Shown here in pieces: positions 9,906 through 64,000 of a stretch of DNA of 64,000 nucleotides. Made by a program: the position numbers and the translations under genes. The stretch's first letter is position 1, and each line of letters begins with the position of its first letter. The notes below the pieces were generated by a model. The model did not search any database. It had not been told where the DNA came from and worked only from the letters and a program-made list of their open reading frames with translations. This stretch comes from an uncultured Oscillospiraceae bacterium (GTDB lineage Bacteria > Bacillota > Clostridia > Acetivibrionales > DTU013): positions 75,900 to 139,899 of the forward strand of contig CAZBEQ010000002.1 in assembly GCA_964490975.1 (NCBI GenBank), read 5' to 3'.

Positions 9906-10670
9906 ATGGAACATCTGCTGCCGACACTTGCTATCATATGCCCATTGATTTTTCTGGCTGGCTTCATCGATTCCATTGCAGGAGGCGGGGGCCTGATTTC
10001 CCTTCCGGCTTACCTGCTTACCGGTCTGCCTGCGCACCAGGCCCTTGCGACAAACAAATTCTCCTCTTCTTTTGGTACCCTGTTTGCGACCATACGGTTT
10101 ATCAAAGGCGGAAAGGTCCATATAAAATCTTCCTTGGCGGCAGTCGCGGGCGCCCTTCCCGGTTCCTTCCTTGGAGCCCGGCTCGCTTTATCACTTGATG
10201 AGAAATATCTGAAATACCTGCTGATAGCTGTTATTCCGGTCATTGCAGCGGTAATCCTGATTAAAAAGGATTTTGGCCTGCAAAACATTTCCGCTTATCT
10301 CACCAATAAAAAAATGTCGGCCATTTCTTTTCTTGCAGGCCTTTTAATTGGCACCTATGACGGCTTCTTCGGCCCCGGAACAGGAACCTTCCTGATACTT
10401 GTTATGACCGGTCTGATCGGCTTTGATCTGACAACCTCCTCAGGCAACGCAAAAGTAGTCAATCTGGCTTCTAATATCTCGGCGGTAACCGCCTTTATCA
10501 TCAGTGGCAAGGTTTTATACATAATTGGTATTCCTGCGGCATTTTTCGGAATACTCGGAGGCTGGATCGGCTCAGGCCTGGCAGTAAGAAAAGGAGCTAA
10601 GGCTATTAAGCCGGTTTTCATGCTTGTACTAGCCATTTTATTAATTAAAATAATTATTGATCTGTTCTAG
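9906..10670 (+). CDS. TauE/SafE (TSUP) family anion exporter-like membrane protein
   Basis: 254 aa with multiple TM helices and FIDSIAGGGGLISLPA / GTYDGFFGPGTG motifs. The RBS AAAGGA lies 6 nt upstream. Confidence 0.85.
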   Translation: MEHLLPTLAIICPLIFLAGFIDSIAGGGGLISLPAYLLTGLPAHQALATNKFSSSFGTLFATIRFIKGGKVHIKSSLAAVAGALPGSFLGARLALSLDEKYLKYLLIAVIPVIAAVILIKKDFGLQNISAYLTNKKMSAISFLAGLLIGTYDGFFGPGTGTFLILVMTGLIGFDLTTSSGNAKVVNLASNISAVTAFIISGKVLYIIGIPAAFFGILGGWIGSGLAVRKGAKAIKPVFMLVLAILLIKIIIDLF

Positions 10671-10737
10671 CGCCTGTATAATGTGACACAATCCCGCATC
10701 ACCCAATTATTTCCAATCCACCAACATGCTCTCATTC

Positions 10738-12186
10738 TCAGCAGGACACTTGTAAGTAAGTGCCCACCGATTGGAAGCTTCCCTTATCCTTGAGGTAACA
10801 GTCAAAGAACTCAAGTATGATCCTGTTCATCGTCTCGATAACCTCATAGCGGTCTGCTATCTGTTCGCCGCCATTTTTCTTCGTCGTACCATTAATCATA
10901 TTTACCAGGAAGGGCGAGAAAAGGGGCAGATCAGTCACACTCATATGGTTAGTGCCCGCAAAATAAACCTCAAATGCTTCCGGTGCATTCTCAAAGACTT
11001 GTTTCTCCGCAATAACAACATTTGAACCCGCTGTAGCAGCAATCGAATCTTTCATAGCCTCTTTCATTGCATCGGTGAAAATACCGAGGATCGGCAAGGG
11101 ATATACTTCAGTATTGGCAACGGGCATCCCATCTCTGAAGCTTGTATATTCACCAAGCAAACCGCCGTCAATATCAATAACCGCATCAACGTCGCTGCGA
11201 TCCCTGCCAAGCTGAGCGCTGGCCGCGCCTCCCAACGAGTGACCCATCAGTCCGATCCTGCCGGTATCGACCAGCCCGAATACCACCTCATTGCCCGCTT
11301 CTACGGAATTTCCAGATGTACCATCACTGCTGCCACTGGCTACTTCCATTACCGGCTCTGCTGTTTCAGGCCCTGCAGTCACTTTTTCAGTTTCTGCCGC
11401 CTTTTTCAGAATCGTATCTAAAACAAAGTTCAAATCATCTGTTCGAGTCTTCATCCACTTTTGCTCAAGCGCAAAGATCTCCTCTTCGCTATAAGCACCA
11501 TTATTTGCATCAACTACCTCCTGCATGACAGCACTGTCCACCAGCGTCATTTTACCATCGGTATCCCTTGTAAACATGGAATGATACGGATGACTTACAG
11601 AGCAGACGACATACCCGTTGCTGGCAAGATCATTGAAGGTCGAGGTGTTGCTTGCCATGATCCCGAATGCTCCATGAGAGAATACCACCAGCGGAAATTT
11701 TCCATTGACGTTTGCGGGGTACCAGAATTCTACTGTAACTTTCCTGTTCTCGCCGGTATTAACGAAGGTTTCCTTCCGGCTGTTGTCAGTAAAAGTGAAT
11801 ATAGCCGTCTTGACTTCCATTTCCCCTGTAACCGCAGGTAATCTGTACTGTGGAAAAACGAGAGCCGGAGTGACGGATAACAGTATTGCCAGCCACACTG
11901 CGACAGCCTTAAATACAGTAGAAACAACCCCAAACTTTTTCGTACCCTCTATTTTACGGAGTAATGAAACCGTACCGGCGAAAGCCATGATCAACAGAGC
12001 GATCGCAAGCATCACCCACCGAAAGCTCCAGATGATGACACCCACTGTGGTAAAAAGCACAAAGGCACCCAGCATACCAATCCGTACCCAGCTTCTGACC
12101 CTTTTCTGACGTGATTTTGTTGCAATACACCAACCAGCTAATACAATTTCAATAATTGCTACTATAACAAGAATAATCGTACCCAT
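10738..12186 (-). CDS. membrane-anchored alpha/beta hydrolase
   Basis: Four N-terminal TM helices are followed by the hydrolase fold with the GHSLGG nucleophile elbow. The RBS AAAGGAG is present. Confidence 0.8.
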   Translation of the reverse strand: MGTIILVIVAIIEIVLAGWCIATKSRQKRVRSWVRIGMLGAFVLFTTVGVIIWSFRWVMLAIALLIMAFAGTVSLLRKIEGTKKFGVVSTVFKAVAVWLAILLSVTPALVFPQYRLPAVTGEMEVKTAIFTFTDNSRKETFVNTGENRKVTVEFWYPANVNGKFPLVVFSHGAFGIMASNTSTFNDLASNGYVVCSVSHPYHSMFTRDTDGKMTLVDSAVMQEVVDANNGAYSEEEIFALEQKWMKTRTDDLNFVLDTILKKAAETEKVTAGPETAEPVMEVASGSSDGTSGNSVEAGNEVVFGLVDTGRIGLMGHSLGGAASAQLGRDRSDVDAVIDIDGGLLGEYTSFRDGMPVANTEVYPLPILGIFTDAMKEAMKDSIAATAGSNVVIAEKQVFENAPEAFEVYFAGTNHMSVTDLPLFSPFLVNMINGTTKKNGGEQIADRYEVIETMNRIILEFFDCYLKDKGSFQSVGTYLQVSC

Positions 12187-12332
12187 ACTGACTCTCCTTT
12201 ATTATCGTAATGTTAACCTTGCTTCCATGACAAATATAAAATGCAGCCGTCCGGTTGTATACGGCACAGGCTGTATCATGTCATTTGAACAGGGTAAGTT
12301 GTAAAAAAGGAGATGTAAGTTGTGCTATTTCT

Positions 12333-12799: not shown

Positions 12800-13237
12800 C
12801 TATAATCCCAGCATCTTCTTCAAAACCGGTACATACTGCCTTGAGACTGCAATACCCTCGCCATTATCCAGTCGGGCCTCAAATCTTCCACTGAAGGAAG
12901 GGCGGACAAAGGAAATTTTCGCTATGTTTATGATCACCGATTTGGATGCCCGGAAAAACTTCCTGCCTTCGCACATTTCTTCAAGTTCATAAAGCTTCTG
13001 CTTCGACTCGAAGACTTTATCCCTGCAGTAAATAAACACCTTGTTCTCGACCGCTTCAAAGTAATATACGTCCGAAACCCTGAGTCTATGGATATTGTCC
13101 TCTTCATAGCCAAGCAGAACGGTGCTGTCCTTTTTTAGTTTGCGCAGCAACTGAAGAATCTCATCATTCACTTCATGACAGCGGATAATGATTTCTTCCT
13201 CGTGTTCCCTGCTGATTTCTTCAATGGATACCTTCAT
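12800..13237 (-). CDS. LytTR-family DNA-binding protein
   Basis: 145 aa with a LytTR-like C-terminus (VYYFEAVENKVFIYC ... FFRASKSVIINI). Confidence 0.8.
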   Translation of the reverse strand: MKVSIEEISREHEEEIIIRCHEVNDEILQLLRKLKKDSTVLLGYEEDNIHRLRVSDVYYFEAVENKVFIYCRDKVFESKQKLYELEEMCEGRKFFRASKSVIINIAKISFVRPSFSGRFEARLDNGEGIAVSRQYVPVLKKMLGL

Positions 13238-15822: not shown

Positions 15823-15884
15823 AAATGGCATGAAAAAAGGGCTCCAGGTATTCCTGGAACCCTTGGCGCGCCCAGCAGAGATCG
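15823..15884 (-). repeat. direct repeat copy B (tRNA-Arg 3' end plus terminator)
   Basis: Pairs with 13343-13405. Contains the terminator hairpin GGGUUCCAGG/CCUGGAGCCC plus a U-run (minus sense). Confidence 0.9.
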
Positions 15885-15940
15885 AATCCACAACCTTCTG
15901 GTCCGTAGCCAGACGCTCTATCCAATTGAGCTATGGGCGC
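15864..15940 (-). tRNA. tRNA-Arg (anticodon ACG)
   Basis: A 77-nt cloverleaf folded by hand: acceptor GCGCCCA/TGGGCGC, D arm GCTC-AATTGGATA-GAGC, anticodon stem TCTGG/CCAGA with loop CTACGGA, T arm GTGGA-TTCGATC-TCTGC, and an encoded CCA. Confidence 0.95.
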
Positions 15941-53170: not shown

Positions 53171-53821
53171 ATGTTATATTTACAGAATATTAATCAAAAC
53201 TGGTATAGTATGCAAAGAGAAGCAACATCATATTTACGAGTGTTTCATGCCTCTCCCGATGCTCCGCCTGTTGATGTTTATGCAAATGGCACTAAATTAG
53301 CAACCAATATTTCCTACGGTGGGTTTACCGAGTATATGCCTGTACCTGCCGGGAGATATAATGTAAGGGTTTTTCCTGTCGGACAGACATTGAACCCTGT
53401 GATAAATACCGATGTTGATATTGCTCCCGGTACCATTATAACCGTAGCTGCAGTCGGTAGGCTTGCTGATATTGAGTTACTTCCAGTTCATGATCCTGTA
53501 ATTCTCATACCACCAGGAATGGCTAACTTAAGATTTGGGCATTTATCTCCTAATGCACCGGCAGTAGACATAGTTTTACCTGATGGAACAAAACTTTTTA
53601 CCAACGTAGGATACAAACAAGTAACAAATTATGTCCCGGCTTATCCAGGCACATATAGCATATTTGTAAGGCCTGCCGGGACAGGTCAGAATGTGCTTTA
53701 TGTACCAAATATCAATTTGAGCGGGGACAGATTTTATACCATTTATGCAATAGGACTGGTGGGTGAAACACCTCCTTTACAGGTAGTTATCCCCCTTGAT
53801 GGCAATAGCTATATTAGATGA
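53171..53821 (+). CDS. DUF4397-domain protein
   Basis: Two repeats of the xHxSPxAPxVDV pattern ([16 protein letters not shown]; [17 protein letters not shown]). GTGAGG lies 7 nt before the ATG at 53171. Confidence 0.75.
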
Positions 53822-53862
53822 GGTATAGTAACCGATTTTTATTGCAGGAGGCGTTATATCAT

Positions 53863-54533
53863 ATGCAACCAATAATGATATCCTCCGGGCAGCATCAATT
53901 GCCCCCATTACCATATCCATATAATGCATTGGAACCTGTAATCAGCGAAAGAACATTAAAAATCCATCATGACAGGCACCATAAAGCTTATGTCGACGGT
54001 TTGAACAGGGCGGAAATAAATTTGTCAAATGCTCGCAAGAGAAATGATTATGAATATATAAAGTACTGGGAAATGAACTTGCATTTAATGGCTCCGGTCA
54101 TATTTTGCACAGTATATATTGGACGACTATGGCTCCCATGGGTTATGGAGGCCAACCTGGCCCATATACCATGCATCATATAAATAATTATTTTGGTAGT
54201 TTTAATGCGTTTATTGATCAGTTTACCAAAGCTACCGAAAAGGTTGAAGCCTCTGGTTGGGGAATCCTGATATGGCAGCCTGCCTGGGGTCATGTGGAGA
54301 TTTTGCAGGCAGAAAAACATCAGAATCTGACACAATGGAGTGGAATTCCCATTCTTGTTTGTGATGTATGGGAACATGCATATTATTTGGATTACCAGAA
54401 TGAACGCAGACAATATATTGATTCCTGGTGGAGTCTAGTCAACTGGTATGAGGTTGAAAGAAGACTTCTTCTGGCAATGATAGGTCAGCTACCACTCATG
54501 CTGGTGAACAACTATCAGCCCTATAAGTCATAG
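53863..54533 (+). pseudogene. sodA: Fe/Mn superoxide dismutase interrupted by a 1-nt frameshift
   Basis: Frame 1 encodes [13 protein letters not shown]...KIHHDRHH...YIKYWE. Frame 0 continues from 54069 with [17 protein letters not shown]...DVWEHAYYLDYQN. The switch is at GGGAAA (54068-54073). Confidence 0.85.
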
Positions 54534-54858: not shown

Positions 54859-55272
54859 TTGAGTGATGAACAGCTTAGGAATGCGTTTGAAATCATTTCC
54901 CCGAAAAGTGACTGGGATCGTTTTTTTAAAGAAAAAATTTACGATATTGATGTAAAAGCTTTACTTAATAATATTCGCTTAAGTCGAAACAATATTGCAC
55001 ATTGCAAGTTTTTCTATAAGAACGATTATCAAGCATGTGCCAAATCAATATCAAAACTTAAAAAGGCTATTAATAAAGCAATTACTTTGACTGAGGAAAA
55101 AGATTTCACACAGAAAAATATGGAAAGGCTTAAAAGTGCTATTTCAGGACTTTCTATCGTGGCTACCCAATTTCAGAAAACCATTTCCGAAATAGTCGAA
55201 CCAATGGCTCAGACAATGGCTGAATGGCAAAAATATATTCTATTCCACTACAAAACTTGGTGCAAAGTATAA
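54859..55272 (+). CDS. HEPN-domain (Swt1-like, RxxxxH) protein, probably 5'-truncated
   Basis: RNNIAH motif at 54985-55002. The frame is open from 54790 with no ATG/GTG before the TTG at 54859, and there is no convincing RBS. Confidence 0.5.
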   Translation: MSDEQLRNAFEIISPKSDWDRFFKEKIYDIDVKALLNNIRLSRNNIAHCKFFYKNDYQACAKSISKLKKAINKAITLTEEKDFTQKNMERLKSAISGLSIVATQFQKTISEIVEPMAQTMAEWQKYILFHYKTWCKV

Positions 55273-55444
55273 ATTTGTCAGCGGCAATGTCTCAATTGAG
55301 TGCTAGTTTATATCAGAATACGAAACATTTCTTAAATGGTGCCACCAAAGATATTTCTCCAGATGAAAATCCTAATTGTGGTCCAAATAAAGAAATAAAT
55401 GATTGACTCAAAATTTCCCCAGTTTTTAATTAAAAGGGGCAATT

Positions 55445-56190
55445 ATAATATTCCCGGCTCCAAGCGCGCAAGCTGCTTGGCCGGTCAGAGATATGGAATC
55501 TTATAAAGCCTCCAGCCCGAACCGTAATGGCCCATGAAATGGCCGGTTACTGGTTCGACAGAGTGGAAGGAACCAAGGGCGTGGAACGCGGCATGAATCA
55601 AGTTAGTCACGATCATGCCAGCCATCAGATGCCGAGCATGCCCCACAAGTTTTTACGGGATGATTTTCAATAAACGGCCGCAGGGGATGAATTTCAATAC
55701 TTACAGGTACTTCCGATTCGCTCATTTGCCTCTACTCGCGCAGGGGGGACCAGCCCGGCAGGCAGCATCACCCGGCTTGCCTGGATGCTGGCCTGGATGG
55801 GCGGTTCCTACGCCTGCTGCTACAGCGGCGGCTACCCACAGGAGCACGGAGGCTCGCTGCTATCGAATGCAGCGGGGGATTTTTAAGGGAGGGAGGTGAA
55901 AAGGTTTTTTGTTTTTATTCTTACGGGACGTTTTTCAATAGAGGGTTACTGGAATGGACGAATTTCTATACTACAAAGCAGCTTCCGGCTCGCTCACTTG
56001 CCACTACCAGCGCAGGGAAACCAGCCCGGCAAGCAGCATCCAAACAATTTTGAAAGGATGCATTCCGGGATGGAGGTCCCTGCGCCTGCCCGCTCCAGAG
56101 GCGCTCGCCGGAGCATCACGTGCCGGGTCAGGATCATGGGTGGCACGGATGCGACGGGCACTACGGGGGAAGGCAGGGGGGAAATAAAAT
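55445..56190. repeat. GC-rich block of three diverged tandem units (about 260-270 bp period), no convincing CDS
   Basis: 43/60 G+C in 55741-55800 versus 17/60 in 56191-56250. Shared anchors: TTACGGGA at 55653 and 55921; CTTCCG..TCGCTCA.TTGCC at 55710 and 55982; ACCAGCCCGGCA.GCAGCATC at 55749 and 56020; GTCA.GATCATG at 55606 and 56127. Confidence 0.75.
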
Positions 56191-56315
56191 AGCGTTTAGA
56201 ATTATTACTCCAGTCCCATACTTCTATATAATATTAATGCTTAGATTCTACTACATCAGAAATCAGAGGGGTTAGAGTATTCGACTTTTTACATTACTTA
56301 TGCTTATTCCATAAA

Positions 56316-56819
56316 TTAACTCTTAAAATATTTCTCTATTCTTTTCAAATGAAAGATACCTATTGAAATTCCAATTCCGATTACGGATAAGTAAAAAATA
56401 GATAGCCACGGAACAGTATCATGTATAGAAATGTAAGACCCAGGATAGGTCCAACTTTCTAAAAATCTCCATCTTCCATTATGATCATAATAGAGATGTA
56501 AAAACTGAATACTAATAGGCGGTAATGTAAGTAATAAAAGTTTAATCACTGTTAATAACTTCCCCAGGTAGCTTAAATTAGGGGTACCACTTTTAGGAAA
56601 TAAATCTGGTATTAGAATTGTTGACAATATTAGTGAAGAAACGCCAAACTCAACAACAGGAAGACTAGGTTTAAAACCTGTTGTTAGTTTAATATCTATT
56701 TGCGTAATAAACTCATATAGATTACTTTCAACCAATATATGATACTCTATTATAATAAAGTAATATATTGATATCTTTAAAAAGAATCTTATTATTCTAA
56801 ATATTATCTCTTTTCTCAT
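56316..56819 (-). CDS. 4-TM membrane protein, candidate immunity protein for the orphan Rhs toxin
   Basis: The 167-aa hydrophobic ORF starts 26 nt after the orphan toxin stop. Very AT-rich, like the rest of the rhs locus. Confidence 0.6.
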   Translation of the reverse strand: MRKEIIFRIIRFFLKISIYYFIIIEYHILVESNLYEFITQIDIKLTTGFKPSLPVVEFGVSSLILSTILIPDLFPKSGTPNLSYLGKLLTVIKLLLLTLPPISIQFLHLYYDHNGRWRFLESWTYPGSYISIHDTVPWLSIFYLSVIGIGISIGIFHLKRIEKYFKS

Positions 56820-56845: not shown

Positions 56846-57634
56846 TCAGTTCTGTTGTTGTGTTAAATCATTATCAATAAGGTAGTAATAATAACGAATA
56901 TCATAATTGTTGTAGTCAGTATCAACTAAATTATAGAAACTATAGCCACCTGAAATTGAGAAGTTTTGTGATGAAGAGAACATGATACCAGACCCTAATA
57001 CATCCTCCCAACCGCTTACTTCCAAGCCAACAAAATTGTAATTCACATTTCCTCCAATAAAATCTCTTTCATATTTTTCAGGTCTATCAGTATTTACAAC
57101 TATACCTAATGGTACGTAAGCAAAACCTACATCCAATTTACCTTTTTTAGGTAAGGTAAAGCTAATTCCATTATGATTATAAATTGCATTCCATCCTTGT
57201 CCCAGATTATGAAGACGAGTGTAACCACTTGTATATGTAAAGACGCCTTTAGTATAAGAAACACTAAAGTCGTTATACACTGATACTTTGTCTAAAGCTC
57301 TTTTCGCCACTTTCCCTTTTAAATATGCGGTATCATTTTTCTCCATATATTCTCTGATATATTTATTACTTCCAGTAATTTGATACCCCCCAGGTATTTG
57401 GTCAACATATCCATTGAAAAAGCTAGGGAAACCTCCTGAAGTTTTATTAGCTTCTTTAGTTTCAGATTTAGTAGTTTGCTTTAATATCAATCTTTGAATA
57501 AACACATCAACTGGTGAATTTCCGCTATCATCAATGAGAGCTATAGGATTATTATAACAATAGGTATAAAGGTTAAGAGATAACGGGTCGTTTTCTTTTC
57601 CTGAATAAGAGTCTTCTGTTATAAACCTACCCAT
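56846..57634 (-). CDS. orphan Rhs C-terminal tip plus toxin domain (5'-truncated rhs cassette)
   Basis: GRFITEDSYSGKENDPLSLNLYTYCYNNPIALIDDSG matches the end of the Rhs core. Homology continues upstream (FDKETGTYYLRARYYDPK) to about 57702, where an in-frame TGA ends it. Confidence 0.75.
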   Translation of the reverse strand: MGRFITEDSYSGKENDPLSLNLYTYCYNNPIALIDDSGNSPVDVFIQRLILKQTTKSETKEANKTSGGFPSFFNGYVDQIPGGYQITGSNKYIREYMEKNDTAYLKGKVAKRALDKVSVYNDFSVSYTKGVFTYTSGYTRLHNLGQGWNAIYNHNGISFTLPKKGKLDVGFAYVPLGIVVNTDRPEKYERDFIGGNVNYNFVGLEVSGWEDVLGSGIMFSSSQNFSISGGYSFYNLVDTDYNNYDIRYYYYLIDNDLTQQQN

Positions 57635-57777: not shown

Positions 57778-58071
57778 TCATTCCTGCTGCTGATTTGGAA
57801 TATCTGGAATTCTGTATTCCTCCCCGGTCTTTATCATCCTGTAGATGATGTTCACAAGCCTTCGCATTACGCACTTAATGGCCTGTTTCTTTGTCTTGCC
57901 TTCGGAGATTTTCTTCTGATAGTACTCCGCAAAGATGGGATTGACCGGGTCGCCCCTCGTACCGTGGTCGTTACACTGTGACACAGCCAGAAAGAATAGT
58001 ATCTGGTTCAGGTTCCTGTCTCCGCGCCGGTTGCTGAAATTGTGATTCCTCGCCCTCTTATCCCTGCCCAT
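57778..58071 (-). mobile_element. IS110-family transposase C-terminal fragment
   Basis: ...YYQKKISEGKTKKQAIKCVMRRLVNIIYRMIKTGEEY matches the conserved IS110/IS902 C-terminus. Only about 97 codons are present and no N-terminal DEDD domain. Confidence 0.7.
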
Positions 58072-58959: not shown

Positions 58960-61900
58960 CTACTTTCCGTTCAGCGCATTTGTCAAGTCCTGTAGCAATT
59001 TTTGAGCAGTCTTTAGGTCATTCGCATTAAGATTTTGCTTGTTTATAATGTTTTGCAAGTTTGCGATACGTTCGAGTGCCTTAGGTATATGGCTAGTCAT
59101 GCCTGTGGGTACTCCATTCACTAATTCATTTCTTACAAAATCTGCGGTACCACCATCTCCAATAGTTCCTCCTGGTCTATATAGCTGATCTATACAATTC
59201 CATAGCTTTTGGTTAGTTACAGAGTTTAACAGTTTATCTCTTACAGTTTGCCCCTTTCCAAAAAGATTCTTGAGTTTATCCCAACCAGTTGTTATACCTG
59301 CACCTATAGCACTTATTGCACTTGCACCAAGTCGTTCCGCTACTAAGACAGACCCAGATACCACCGCTACATCTTCACAGAACAGTATAGTCTGTTCTCT
59401 CTTGTAAGCAGCCTGTTGTGATGTCAAATACGAGTAGAGCCCCTGCACCTCTGCTACAGAACCACCGCCAGGACCATTAAATAGATTGCTCGCGTTGACT
59501 ACATCATTGAAATTATACCATCCATCGATATACTCAAATGAGTCTCTAATTTTATCCCTTAAGCCGACTCCTAAAGCTGCAATTTCGGTTCTTCTCGATG
59601 CACTAGCCGTTGCATACTCTTGTTTCAAGCTTATCAACTGGGATAAGTATATCTCAGCTTCATGCCCAGATGGGTCAAACATATTAACGGGATTGTTCAG
59701 GCAGTAGGTGTAGAGGTTTAATGACAATGGGTCACTATCTGAACCCCATACACTATCCTCAGAAATAAACCGTCCTATTTCCGAATCATAATACCTTGCA
59801 CGTAGATAATAGTTCCCGGTTTCAGAATCAAAGTACTCTCCACAGTATCTGGACACGTTTGTATCGTTCGGGTCAATATTACTCTCGCTTCCAAATGCGT
59901 CATACTCATATGACTTTACTGTATTTCCTGCTGTATCTGTCAATTGTACTACATCACCGTGGCCGTTGTACGCATACCATTTCTTGGTGCCTCCAGCCGG
60001 AGTTTCGGCGCAAATAAGGTTTATCCCGCGAATATACTTACTCGTTATATTACCAGCACCATTCAGTTCTATCGATATCTGGTCACCATCCCATACATGC
60101 TTCGTTAATACTCCATTAACACTCTTTGCAGCTCGTAAACCATTCGCATTATATGTGTATTCTGCAACTGTATTATCTGATGTTGTCTTTATAAGCTGAT
60201 TAAGTCCATTATACTCCATCAGACTAACACTGTCATCCGCTAACCCGGCAACAGATATACTGACAGCTTCCTGCTCCCCATTGTCAGGGACGAAAACCTC
60301 AGTACCCTTGTATATCTGGTTACCATTATTATCATAGCTATAGCTTGTTACCTCTGTGATATCAGCAGCTTCTTTTGTTTCTGCCAGAAGCCTGCTATTT
60401 AAGTCATAGACATAACTTGTGGTATATGGATTTATTCCCGTTGCTATTAACGTTTTCCTGTTATTATAGTCGTCATAGATATACCCAATTGCAGACGTCA
60501 CAGTTCCAATAGATGAATTGCTTTCACTTGTCAGTCTTGACAAACCATCATATGAATAGGTAGTCGCTTTGCCGCTTGTAGAATCAGACTTTCTTGACTG
60601 ATTACCGTCCAGATAATACTCATATGAATAATGTGAAATCTGGCTGCCCGCCCCATTTGTGTTAGATAAATCAACTAGTTTATTTGCCAAATTGTATACA
60701 TAGGCTGTATCGTTGCCATTTGAGTATTTCAACGATTTTCTGTTGCCATTTTCATCATATGTATAGATTGCAACAAGCTGATCGTTTTCGAATACCTGGT
60801 ACAGTCTGTTCATATTGTCATAGGTATAGGAAGTGCTTAACTTGACCACTCCACCAAGTGTCAGCGTATAGGTTTTTCTGTTATCGGCAGCATCATACGC
60901 ATACTCCTTGACAATATTACCGTCGGTCTCCTTCATCAACCTGTCAAGGCTGTCATATTCATAAGTAATGTTGTCAGATAATGTCACCTTATCGTTGAAG
61001 CCATATTCATATGTATGGGATGTGTTGCCTTTCCCGTCCGGTGTTACAACGCTTGTTGATTTCAGCCTGCTCAAATAATCATATATGTTGGTAGTAATAT
61101 TACCATTGCGGTCGGTTTTACTTGTCATGTTACCATTTGCATCATACCCATATGATTCAGACATGCCCATTGGATCTGTCATCTTAAGCAGTCTTCCCTG
61201 ATGGTCGTATTCATATTTCGTGGTTGAGTATGAATGATCCGATCCATCAACTATTTTATCAAGCCCATTTATTTTAAGAGGGCTGCTTAAGCCGGTATAT
61301 TGCCTTAGCTTATTCCCTGCTGCATCATAATAGTATTGAGTATAATTAGCTTTATTTGCAGTTTCGAACTTTAATACCTTTGTTAGTAGATTCCTGGTAT
61401 TATACTCATAATCCTGACGACTATATGCCATAGTTTGTCCAGGCTTGTTCGAACTTGTTTTAGAAATGATTACATTACCGTTTCTATCATAATAGTTTTT
61501 CTTTATCGTGTTATAAATAGTGTTGTTAATTTTAGCAAAGGGTATATTCTCCTCAATAGTTCTGCCCAGCTTATCATATTTATAAGTTGTTGAGTATTTA
61601 GGGGTTGCTAGATTTCCCTTAAAGTCAGTTACTGCTTTTATTTTGCCGAGCGCATCGTATTCAGTCAAAGTATAATTACCCTCTATGTTAAATGTTTTCA
61701 CAGGTCGCCCAGCAAAATCATATTCATATTTTGCGGTCCAGGGATTAGTCCATCCCTCCTGGTATGCGCGAGCCGATTTTTCTTCAGTTTTGTTTCCGAT
61801 ATAGTCATATTTATATGTATCCGCATATTCTATGCCATTATATATACGACCCGTTTTTACTACTTCTCCATGCTTATTCGTATATACATTGGTTGTCATA

Positions 61901-64000
61901 CTTTTCCATGGATAATATGTAGTAACTGTTTTTTCAGCTTTCTGATATTTCTCTCCGGTCGCAGGATCTACATATGCGTCATCATAAGTATATACTTCAT
62001 TATATATCTCCGAATTGCCCTTATCCCTTATCGTCTTTCTCTTAATCCTGCCGTCCCCGATATACTCATATTCTATCTTTCTGCTATCCTCACTTGAATT
62101 ATGATTATTTTCCTCACAGATTCTCATGTTTCTATCATATTTGTATTGATTCAAGTATTCACCGGTGGTCACATCCTGTTCGAACAATAGGTTACCCAGC
62201 CTATCATAACCGTACTTTAATTGTTTACCTAATTCATTGGTTACCAAGGTATAGTTCTCTGTAGAATTAGTAACATATTGCATTGTCTTATAGGTCGTAT
62301 CCGAGTAAGTTTCGCGTGTCACTCGACCAAGCTTGTCATATTGATAGGAAGTAGTGTTCCCCTGTCCATCCTGTTTCTCCTTAACATTGCCAAACCAATC
62401 GTATATGTATCTTTCATCAACAGTACCAGGATTGTTACCCGCAATAGCAGCAACTGAAAGGTTATCTGCATCCAGTACCCCCTCAACATACTTTCGAGTC
62501 AGATATAGTCCATTAAACTTACCATTTCTTGATACTACATTATCATCATAGCAATATTTTATATCATTATAATCAGTCCAATTATCCAAATAGTTTTTTT
62601 CTTCGATAACATTTCCGTAGACATCATATAAGAATTGCGTTTGCTTTTTTAATACCCCGTTTTCAAACACTTTTGCATACTCAATACTTTTACCGTCTGA
62701 TGTCGGCAAATACTGTTCTCTAATTGTATTACCGGCATCTCTCTTATATGTTTTGCTTATAAGATAATGGTATGTTGGATGGTATTGATATGTGGTTTTG
62801 TATTCAATGTTTGTTTTATCGCCCGCAGCTTTACTGCTCCAATATTCCAAAAGATCACGGTATATGTCATAGGTAAAATTCTGAATACTTTCTACATATT
62901 GACCTGTTGTTTTATTATATGTTCTATAAGTAGTCTTCGCTAGTTGTCTATTACTATCATACTCATTAATAGTTTCATTTTTATAGTCAGGTCCGATTGC
63001 TACACTATTTGTAAGTAAGCAATTGTCATCAAAAATAAGTCGGTCAGTATTTTCAGTCCCATCAGCATTGAATGTCATAACATCCGTTGTAGTACCGTAA
63101 GGCTCGGAATATGGCCACCCGTCATACTCAGCAGAATCATTTCTATTATATAGATACACCTTTGAAATTGATGTGGTATTATTATAATCAACGCTGTTGA
63201 ACATTTTATAGAATTGCATTGATCCATCTTCACCGAGGTTTTTTGTATATATGTAATTTATAAAAACGGAATAACCGCCTGATGGATAATTTATTTTACG
63301 AAGACATGCAAAGAAATTATCAACACCATTGCCATCTCCTAGTACAGAATTCACCTCTTTAACATCAGCATCAGCTTTACATAAGTTAAAGTGGTACAGA
63401 TAGGATGTAACACGGTTTTCAACATCCGTAACTGAAGACAAATAATATTCAGAGTCCAGAATGTAGTTTTGAAATTCACTCGAAGCTTGACTTCTAATCA
63501 ATGCTTTTTGGTACAAAATACTTTTAGTCTGCCCATCTCCATATACAGAAACAGTCAAAGTATTATTTGTATCATTATAGTTAAAATATATGTCTCTACC
63601 TACACTGTCTATTATATGACTAATATAATAAAAACTTTCATCTCCAAGCTCTCTAGTCGAGTACTGAAAGGTTATGTGATTATCATAACGATCTCCAATA
63701 CCAATTAAATAACCATAATAGTTAAAAAAATACTTTCTCCCATCCTTCTCCTCAAGTGCCCACACTGAGTCTGCCACCATATTATTCGACTGGCCATTAT
63801 TAAATGTCCCAAGAACACCATTCGGTGCATAATCGTACTTTAATCTGTACTCCTGTAAGTTTTCATCTTTTAAATAGAAACAATTACTATATACATCGAA
63901 ATTACCTTCCGGCATTATAAATATGACACCTTTTGAGCCAATATGAAGTTCTCTTGGCCAGCCACTTCTTACAACCAGGTGCGGCAGATCAAGAGCCCAT
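58960..64000 (-). CDS. Rhs/YD-repeat polymorphic toxin (N-terminus lies beyond the window)
   Basis: Dozens of YD repeats (YxYDxxGNxxxxxD), the core end ...YYLRARYYDSEIGRFISEDS...NLYTYCLNNPVNMFDPSGHE, then a 232-aa C-terminal domain. The frame remains open to position 64000. Confidence 0.92.
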   Translation of the reverse strand, partial: WALDLPHLVVRSGWPRELHIGSKGVIFIMPEGNFDVYSNCFYLKDENLQEYRLKYDYAPNGVLGTFNNGQSNNMVADSVWALEEKDGRKYFFNYYGYLIGIGDRYDNHITFQYSTRELGDESFYYISHIIDSVGRDIYFNYNDTNNTLTVSVYGDGQTKSILYQKALIRSQASSEFQNYILDSEYYLSSVTDVENRVTSYLYHFNLCKADADVKEVNSVLGDGNGVDNFFACLRKINYPSGGYSVFINYIYTKNLGEDGSMQFYKMFNSVDYNNTTSISKVYLYNRNDSAEYDGWPYSEPYGTTTDVMTFNADGTENTDRLIFDDNCLLTNSVAIGPDYKNETINEYDSNRQLAKTTYRTYNKTTGQYVESIQNFTYDIYRDLLEYWSSKAAGDKTNIEYKTTYQYHPTYHYLISKTYKRDAGNTIREQYLPTSDGKSIEYAKVFENGVLKKQTQFLYDVYGNVIEEKNYLDNWTDYNDIKYCYDDNVVSRNGKFNGLYLTRKYVEGVLDADNLSVAAIAGNNPGTVDERYIYDWFGNVKEKQDGQGNTTSYQYDKLGRVTRETYSDTTYKTMQYVTNSTENYTLVTNELGKQLKYGYDRLGNLLFEQDVTTGEYLNQYKYDRNMRICEENNHNSSEDSRKIEYEYIGDGRIKRKTIRDKGNSEIYNEVYTYDDAYVDPATGEKYQKAEKTVTTYYPWKSMTTNVYTNKHGEVVKTGRIYNGIEYADTYKYDYIGNKTEEKSARAYQEGWTNPWTAKYEYDFAGRPVKTFNIEGNYTLTEYDALGKIKAVTDFKGNLATPKYSTTYKYDKLGRTIEENIPFAKINNTIYNTIKKNYYDRNGNVIISKTSSNKPGQTMAYSRQDYEYNTRNLLTKVLKFETANKANYTQYYYDAAGNKLRQYTGLSSPLKINGLDKIVDGSDHSYSTTKYEYDHQGRLLKMTDPMGMSESYGYDANGNMTSKTDRNGNITTNIYDYLSRLKSTSVVTPDGKGNTSHTYEYGFNDKVTLSDNITYEYDSLDRLMKETDGNIVKEYAYDAADNRKTYTLTLGGVVKLSTSYTYDNMNRLYQVFENDQLVAIYTYDENGNRKSLKYSNGNDTAYVYNLANKLVDLSNTNGAGSQISHYSYEYYLDGNQSRKSDSTSGKATTYSYDGLSRLTSESNSSIGTVTSAIGYIYDDYNNRKTLIATGINPYTTSYVYDLNSRLLAETKEAADITEVTSYSYDNNGNQIYKGTEVFVPDNGEQEAVSISVAGLADDSVSLMEYNGLNQLIKTTSDNTVAEYTYNANGLRAAKSVNGVLTKHVWDGDQISIELNGAGNITSKYIRGINLICAETPAGGTKKWYAYNGHGDVVQLTDTAGNTVKSYEYDAFGSESNIDPNDTNVSRYCGEYFDSETGNYYLRARYYDSEIGRFISEDSVWGSDSDPLSLNLYTYCLNNPVNMFDPSGHEAEIYLSQLISLKQEYATASASRRTEIAALGVGLRDKIRDSFEYIDGWYNFNDVVNASNLFNGPGGGSVAEVQGLYSYLTSQQAAYKREQTILFCEDVAVVSGSVLVAERLGASAISAIGAGITTGWDKLKNLFGKGQTVRDKLLNSVTNQKLWNCIDQLYRPGGTIGDGGTADFVRNELVNGVPTGMTSHIPKALERIANLQNIINKQNLNANDLKTAQKLLQDLTNALNGK

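Follow-up and report, generated by a model that had tools for sequence, protein, structure and literature searches.

What is a GC-rich block of roughly 750 nucleotides doing at the border of a bacterial toxin locus? The question is raised by a stretch of 64,000 nucleotides from an uncultured Oscillospiraceae bacterium (GenBank assembly GCA_964490975.1, contig CAZBEQ010000002.1, positions 75,900 to 139,899 of the forward strand), which we call the window and whose own numbering is used below. A preliminary description had placed the block at 55445-56190, between a HEPN remnant and an Rhs toxin locus, and had offered three explanations: a tandem array of a structured RNA, a horizontally acquired non-coding element, or decayed coding DNA of high G+C content. 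Our results show that the block belongs to a dispersed family of large, GC-rich, non-coding modular repeats that had not been described before, and is one of its copies.

A dispersed family of modular repeats

The search of related genomes and metagenomes advised in the preliminary description recovered a family: 12 non-redundant contigs of related uncultured Clostridia together carry about 20 copies or fragments of it (copies and contigs are denoted by L numbers). One genome per species was scanned for the 21-mer ACCAGCCCGGCANGCAGCATC, which gave 72 loci, most of them chance matches in GC-rich genomes; with blastn, real homologues were present in only one metagenome-assembled genome (MAG), 'Bacillota bacterium OH_SBrB_125', four contigs of which align with the entire block over 630-670 nt (81-83% identity). 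A metagenome scan for the paired direct repeats described below found contig L094, with a full copy across the contig ends and a fragment of the leading module, while the metagenome pattern GGATGGGCGGTTCCTNCGCCTG had no match. As gene callers often annotate proteins over the repeat, an alignment of these spurious open reading frames (ORFs) was used to search protein databases, and the resulting 15 entries led to nine more contigs with further copies. There was no blastn match to the block in phage and plasmid collections, pattern scans of viral contigs gave nothing or chance matches only, and literature searches did not turn up an element like it. Several copies are located at the ends of contigs, as is typical of assembly-breaking repeats. 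The ends of L094 (12.9 kb) are themselves identical over 29 nt within the block (1-29 and 12908-12936), which would reflect a circular molecule or, with greater probability, self-closure of the assembly through the repeat.

The block differs sharply from its surroundings in composition: G+C content is 0.50-0.63 within it (55400-56200), 0.27-0.37 in the flanks and about 0.42 over the whole window, and an exact recount of the abrupt jump noted previously gave the same figures (43/60 vs 17/60). It had been divided into three head-to-tail units, U0, U1 and U2, of which two are true tandem units. By self-alignment and repeat search, U1 (55650-55917) and U2 (55918-56190), both on the plus strand, repeat with a period of about 271 nt; they align locally with a score of 110, whereas dinucleotide shuffles reach 18.8 +/- 2.5, and their identity falls from 76% over the first ~120 nt to 73% over ~185 nt and 53% beyond, in the last third. 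No such relationship was found for U0, whose scores against U1 and U2 are 16 and 19, compared with 16.8 and 17.4 in shuffles, and whose supposed match to the unit tails amounts to a common 12-mer, GTCA.GATCATG. U0 is a separate conserved head module (55432-55650, plus strand), present in all homologous copies and without homology to the units. The sequence anchors reported earlier, both GCATC/GATGC hairpins with their 14-nt loops, both TTGCC/GGCA(A/G)G helices and the Shine-Dalgarno-like run AAGGGAGGGAGGTG between U1 and U2 were all found in place. Neither of the two long anchors recurs elsewhere in the window (0 expected by chance), which holds no second copy of the block.

Each unit carries two copies of a 16-nt direct repeat, GGGAYGWWTTTCAATA, spaced by 27-30 nt, giving four copies in the window against 0.36 expected. 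The U1 pair, GGGATGATTTTCAATA / GGGATGAATTTCAATA (55657-55699, plus strand, spacing 27 nt), is nearly invariant in 20 aligned units, and the U2 repeats lie at 55925-55940 and 55955-55970 on the same strand. The core of each unit is an imperfect palindrome of 76 nt, located at 55738-55813 in U1 around the GCATC hairpin (55763-55790) and at 56010-56085 in U2 around the hairpin at 56036-56061; in U1 its arms read GCGCAGG..ACC..GCCC..AGGC..GCATC before the loop and GATGC..GCCT..GGGC.GGTT.CCTACGC after it. The end of U1 has a terminator-like hairpin (55853-55876) with a T run, together spanning 55853-55885 on the plus strand and occurring at the same site in L010 and L103. It is followed at the U1/U2 junction by the SD-like purine run AAGGGAGGGAGGTGA (55885-55899, plus strand), and all two-unit copies have a G-rich run here. 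Within the head, hairpin 1 (CCGGCT-CC-AAGCG / TGCTT-GGCCGG; 55454-55484, plus strand) was read from the sequence and hairpin 2 (GAACCGTAA...TTACTGGTTC; 55519-55557, plus strand) from the alignment of copies.

Two smaller features of the units were also noted. At the junction, in the window (55884-55911) as in homologues, GGAGGTGA is a perfect complement of the 3' end of 16S rRNA, and a TTG 9-12 nt past it opens a conserved mini-ORF of 8-10 codons, (M)ILRDVFQ-stop, across the first 16-nt direct repeat; the stop in the window's U2 is TAG, not TAA. We considered a leader peptide and set it aside, as the conservation of this mini-ORF probably only mirrors that of the DNA. A 12-nt tandem duplication, GCTTGCCTGGAT / GCTGGCCTGGAT, lies in U1 at 55775-55799 (TRF score 43), and the U1-type unit L102_1 is without one repeat.

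Alignment of the copies revealed a common order of a short AT-rich lead-in, the head, an optional insert of about 150 nt (INS) and one or two units of about 270 nt, with copy lengths of about 0.4-1.2 kb. About half of the copies contain the INS, which is absent from the window copy. L010b, L106a/b and L112 have one unit and other copies two; the unit of L010b is chimeric, with a U1-type start and a U2-type end, the outcome that unequal crossing-over between units would give. Truncated copies meet unrelated DNA at differing internal points: the head fragment of L094 is fused to the interior of an IS110 gene, homology to which stops 261 nt inside the gene, where the fragment starts, and L100 retains just the last ~55 nt of the repeat. 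These chimeric and truncated copies point, indirectly, to recombination within the block. Head identity within one MAG is only 56-82%, indicating that the copies are old; despite this age, GGATGGGCGGTTCCTGCGCCTGCC and the 16-nt repeats are almost invariant across copies.

The variation among copies also bears on whether the block is decayed high-GC protein-coding DNA from another organism, an idea that we regard as very improbable. It draws on the plus frames, described earlier as all open, on a mild codon-phase bias among the U1 substitutions and on the 'hypothetical proteins' that gene callers annotate over copies. The frames are open only relatively, with 3-6 stops per plus frame compared with 8-13 per minus frame. 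The 94- and 98-aa ORFs, as stated previously, contain no domain, nor does the minus-strand ORF match Pfam, and the only relatives in protein databases are ORFs over other copies, with no annotated homologue among them. Fifteen such entries (P0121-P0135; 74-259 aa; NCBI, ENA and JGI collections) result from translation of repeat copies and are likely to be spurious gene calls. Indels across about 15 copies are mostly of 1-2 nt, and 8-30% of runs are multiples of three; since multiples of three are this rare, a conserved reading frame is excluded. Substitutions in the putative frames hit second codon positions coinciding with hairpin arms in the alignment, and the same architecture recurs about 20 times. 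The indel pattern, together with the absence of a Pfam match, led us to reject decayed coding DNA, which is effectively excluded.

Folding and the structured-RNA question

A different possibility is that the block is a novel structured non-coding RNA gene, or a tandem pair of them, with plus-strand transcription that stops at the U1 hairpin or at the tail. Such an RNA might influence the conflict systems beside it, by shielding them as an antisense or insulating transcript from read-through out of the convergent toxin operon, for instance, or as a protein sponge by virtue of its many GGAUG motifs. The contrast between a block of 0.5-0.63 G+C and a genome of about 0.4 is in keeping with this idea, as are the long invariant stretches retained in old copies, the conserved plus-strand hairpin resembling a terminator and the hairpins kept in 14-20 homologous segments. 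However, the block matches no Rfam family, the check proposed in the preliminary description: with Rfam 15 the whole window yielded only a tRNA (15867-15940), nothing reached the gathering threshold in the block, and the sub-threshold matches at E <= 10 were chance matches to which no family could be assigned. Copies from 10 loci were equally silent, that of L102 even at E <= 1, although the same loci gave positive controls in the form of the group II intron of L105 and an FMN riboswitch. The latter lies in L112 (5350-5477, plus strand) upstream of an ECF riboflavin transporter gene. Nor was a conserved sigma-70-like promoter found in the block or in the homologues examined.

The evidence from folding is divided. 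The stems named in the preliminary description are indeed kept, with 93% of cells paired in 20 units, so that their loss from homologues, which it had named as a refutation, was not observed; no pair in these stems was changed on both sides, however, and shuffled controls match. For the unit palindrome, 89% of cells are paired in the 20 units and covariation does not exceed that of shuffles, and over all helices 89-95% of cells are paired with 0-1 pairs changed on both sides. The power to detect covariation is limited, because the copies are 54-86% identical. RNAalifold consensus energies are weak for the units (-1.7 kcal/mol) and the head (-6.6 kcal/mol), with covariation terms of about zero. 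The minimum free energy of the plus strand (z = -3.3) could be taken to favour an RNA, but the minus strand folds equally well (z = -3.5), and values about 3.4 standard deviations better than shuffles on both strands are expected of inverted repeats at the DNA level. A nested fold of helix A with the unit palindrome was discarded: the two helices cross, as a pseudoknot or as alternatives, and neither covaries.

Some signs of single-strand constraint may nevertheless be present outside the unit core. Head hairpin 1 is kept in 13 of 14 copies, in which G-U, G-C and A-U alternate and one pair covaries (AU:6, GC:6). Head hairpin 2 is of two types, GTAAC/GTTAC and GTAAAC/GTTTAC, in which matched single-base insertions on both arms retain pairing. 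In the INS, which folds as a long hairpin, the consensus energy reaches -56 kcal/mol and three pairs covary. These observations hint at selection on a folded single strand, although modules that are present in some copies and absent from others would be unusual for a single folded RNA.

It had also been argued that differences between helices become G-U pairs only in a plus-sense transcript. This does not hold generally. G-U exceeds A-C by 45:5 in the head helices and by 41:14 in the INS helices, a bias partly built in because the structures were predicted on the plus strand, whereas in the unit-core palindrome it reverses, with 5 G-U against 24 A-C. Strand assignment from these counts was therefore dropped, since the modules disagree. 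Plus-strand GGA motifs are enriched (26 vs 10), as is GGAYG (9 vs 1, with 2.3 expected); a sponge of CsrA type was rejected, as several of these motifs lie in stems and not in loops, and it remains speculation. Taken as a whole, a structured-RNA role is possible but unproven from comparison of the copies, and the RNA gene as set out above is in our view unlikely, albeit the likeliest of the rival explanations.

Several established RNA elements and targets were considered and rejected. An ORF-less group II intron or other ribozyme does not fit, because Rfam is silent in all blocks and detects the real neighbouring intron at L105. Type III toxin-antitoxin (TA) antitoxin repeats, a retron RNA and a riboswitch lack a suitably placed partner gene and an Rfam match. 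The differences between U1 and U2 are not adenine-specific, which argues against the template and variable repeats of a diversity-generating retroelement, and ARAGORN found no tRNA- or tmRNA-like integration target in 55000-56600.

Toxin-immunity arrays and defence cassettes around the copies

The suggestion of a non-coding element tied to a conflict neighbourhood has fared best. Copies recur beside toxin-immunity arrays and defence cassettes in related Clostridia, and the suggestion can be sharpened to a dispersed modular repeat with a preferred position. In 13 of the 14 copies with a known tail-side neighbour, the window included, that neighbour converges on the tail; with random orientation and independent copies assumed, the chance of at least 13 of 14 is about 0.001. 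By folding, the tail of seven homologues abuts a canonical GC hairpin with a U run on the convergent strand. The window has no canonical fold at this site, and comparison of tails places a degenerate remnant of the terminator module at 56186-56225 (minus strand), with its 5' arm lost.

Convergent genes frequently encode polymorphic toxins or immunity proteins: RHS in the window, L070 and L102, PT-TG in L103, Imm26 and DUF4259 in L070, SUKH-3 in L111, Imm8 in L100, and Imm3 with Toxin-deaminase in L117. On the head side, candidate defence genes were found, including HEC-01A/B (E = 3e-129, 5e-64), PDC-S06 (E = 5e-298), an ATPase-Toprim, a NucC-like nuclease, a large helicase and PDC-M63A. In L010, L105 and L106, inverted pairs of blocks with their heads inward flank candidate defence cassettes. 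The members of a pair are 82% (L010) and 80-86% (L106) identical, compared with 54-80% for other pairs of copies, and in two of the three inverted pairs they are each other's closest relatives. The bracketed cassettes (L010, 1587-3424; L106, 4453-7233; L105, 2340-9165) encode, as candidates, HEC-01A/B, a PD-DExK nuclease of NucC type that is accompanied by a 520-aa partner, and an ATPase resembling AriA/GajA alongside DUF1848 and DUF4238 genes.

Fixed orientation at the end of cassettes is a property of integron attC sites, imperfect palindromes located at the 3' end of cassettes whose functions include, in chromosomal integrons, defence and toxin-antitoxin systems. The block likewise is palindromic and lies in fixed orientation at the 3' end of cassette genes with conflict functions. 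It could then be a site-specific recombination site, like attC or pdif, which captures or inverts cassettes and whose repeats and palindromes bind a recombinase. The inverted pairs around defence cassettes and the almost invariant paired 16-nt repeats would fit such a site. However, an integrase or recombinase gene is adjacent to no copy, and the integrase and R/L boxes of the attC system are missing. The element, at 750 nt against 60-140 nt for attC, is 5-10 times longer than known sites. The blocks form inverted pairs and not a co-oriented array, and the arrays of cassettes lack a uniform orientation. The break points of truncated copies lie at various places inside the repeat; homologous or illegitimate recombination would give this pattern, site-specific exchange would not. 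For these reasons, we consider a site of this kind improbable.

The same features could suggest a non-autonomous mobile element with nested palindromes, similar to a MITE (miniature inverted-repeat transposable element) or to repetitive extragenic palindromes (REPs) and bacterial interspersed mosaic elements (BIMEs), which is mobilised in trans and inserts in a defined orientation beyond intrinsic terminators. The family is multi-copy, dispersed and often at contig ends, its orientation and position beside terminators are strict, its units and INS are long imperfect palindromes, the INS is present in some copies and absent from others, and terminator-adjacent repeat families such as SPRITE exist (PMC3184786). 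Yet the hallmarks of a MITE are missing: the repeat search found no terminal inverted repeat spanning the whole block, and no target-site duplication was seen at the aligned ends. An identity of 56-86% among copies within a genome means that no burst has occurred recently, an empty site was not found, and the nearby transposases are inconsistent (IS110, IS66, a group II intron). Intact IS110 elements in L100 and L101, which are 91% and 88% identical to the local remnants, have no flanking block; this also disposes of the block as an IS110 bridge or seek RNA or as an insertion sequence end. An element mobilised in this manner seems doubtful, and ranks just below an RNA gene.

Mobile elements are nonetheless part of the neighbourhood. 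In L105, a complete group II intron (10260-12192, minus strand; Rfam matches to D1-D4-4 and domain V/VI, with an RVT_1 and GIIM protein split into two ORFs) lies exactly between the terminator region and the block tail, a position consistent with terminator-targeted insertion. In the window, a 97-aa C-terminal remnant of an IS110-family transposase (57778-58071, minus strand) lies between the immunity genes of the main Rhs and an orphan Rhs tip. The order IS110, orphan toxin, immunity gene, block recurs in L094 (3065-4123), L100 (3235-4476) and L111 (5500-6729), with a SymE-like ORF upstream in L100 and L111, an arrangement that suggests a conserved target site of this IS110 lineage where orphan toxin modules begin.

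The immediate neighbours of the block in the window are of the same character. On the head side is the C-terminal fragment of a Swt1-like HEPN protein (54859-55272, plus strand; PF18731, E = 3e-6, positions 51-115 of 115). On the tail side, a hydrophobic protein of 167 aa without a Pfam match (56316-56819, minus strand) converges on the block and, from its position just downstream of the orphan Rhs tip, is a candidate immunity gene. The orphan Rhs C-terminal toxin module (56846-57634, minus strand) was recognised by the core-end motif DPLSLNLYTYC, which it has in common with the 1651-aa Rhs at 58960-63915, and it has DNA similarity to the orphan of L094. Further upstream, an Fe/Mn superoxide dismutase is split into overlapping Sod_Fe_N (53818-54183) and Sod_Fe_C (54105-54533) ORFs (53818-54533 overall, plus strand) by an apparent frameshift, reflecting a pseudogene or a sequencing error. 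The window is chromosomal and carries pyruvate:ferredoxin oxidoreductase and formate-tetrahydrofolate (THF) ligase. The host belongs to an uncultured Clostridia lineage; its formate-THF ligase shares 88% identity with the enzyme of a 'Clostridiaceae' MAG and 79% with that of Pseudobacteroides cellulosolvens, the closest cultured relative by this protein.

Mosaic extragenic repeats and the possible role of the block

Our favoured explanation, to which we assign about an even probability, is that the block is a mosaic intergenic repeat of the BIME, NIME (neisserial intergenic mosaic element) or BOX kind, which may serve as a boundary and as portable homology for the exchange and inversion of cassettes. 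The element would then act mainly at the DNA level. It may form a hairpin-rich boundary separating convergent or neighbouring transcription units, and recombination between copies, within and between genomes, could lead to the exchange, inversion or loss of the toxin-immunity and defence cassettes beside them. The high G+C content might result from selection for stable hairpins or from GC-biased gene conversion among copies.

The comparison with known repeats gives this explanation its basis. NIMEs consist of RS units of 50-150 bp flanked by 20-bp dRS3 repeats. They form mosaic intergenic arrays beside families of variable or silent gene cassettes, for which they have been proposed to supply homology for recombination (PMC3184786, citing Parkhill et al. 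2000), and the block has a similar setting; it has no RS/dRS3 architecture, however, and belongs to another phylum, and for both a recombination role is inferred. The pneumococcal BOX element is also modular (A-Bn-C) with a variable unit number and is transcribed, whereas BOX and SPRITE elements are of 100-300 bp, have no sequence similarity to the block and are not tied to toxin or defence cassettes.

More generally, G+C-rich stem-loop repeats form mosaic clusters, are biased to sites between convergent genes and have been linked to recombination, termination and mRNA stability (PMC3184786). In common with REP/BIME-type elements, the block is extragenic and multi-copy, combines G+C-rich imperfect palindromes with other motifs in mosaics of varying unit number, and occupies sites like those of BIMEs between convergent genes or at the 3' ends of operons (PMC3184786). 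The differences are in size, number and host. In Enterobacteria and Pseudomonas, REPs are of 35-40 nt and BIMEs of a few hundred bp at most, while the units here are of ~270 nt and the element of 0.4-1.2 kb; palindromes measure 76-105 nt in the block and ~20-40 nt in the REP palindromic unit. BIMEs occur in hundreds of copies per genome, compared with tens, as far as visible, for the block family. The block resides in Clostridia and has no sequence similarity to BIMEs, for which the association with toxin-immunity and defence genes is not a feature, and no Y1/RAYT gene was found in about 130 kb of DNA flanking the copies.

Several observations weigh against this explanation. No inter-strain recombination event with breakpoints in the blocks was detected, the duplicate contigs compared being all identical, and no transposase, recombinase or RAYT is consistently near the copies. 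The size of 0.4-1.2 kb is several times that of known BIME, BOX and NIME units. Long stretches such as GGATGGGCGGTTCCTGCGCCTGCC stay invariant in copies whose heads have diverged to 56-82% identity, which argues for a sequence-specific function, through a bound protein or a functional RNA, over mere homology. Transcription of the plus strand would more readily account for the conserved terminator-like hairpin with which U1 ends.

A bolder and rather doubtful proposal, which we judge a little less probable than mobilisation in trans, is that the blocks are organising junction elements of clostridial 'conflict islands'. As sequence-specific devices, either protein platforms or convergent RNAs anchored at terminators, they might mark the distal end of toxin arrays, bracket defence cassettes, and bring about or control the exchange, inversion or silencing of these. 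It is conceivable, with the same degree of doubt, that they represent a cassette system similar to integron attC sites or NIMEs that operates without a known recombinase.

In summary, the family itself is new; its nearest known kind is the mosaic extragenic repeat, from which its size and reproducible context set it apart as unusual. Recognition of the family would improve annotation, as the repeat breaks assemblies and draws spurious protein calls. Within conflict islands, the block may in addition act as a new RNA or protein-binding element. Toxin arrays and defence islands turn over fast, and cassette exchange in Gram-positive anaerobes is poorly understood; recurrence of these blocks at the terminator-proximal end of toxin-immunity arrays and around defence cassettes makes them a candidate for the homology or boundary that enables such exchange.

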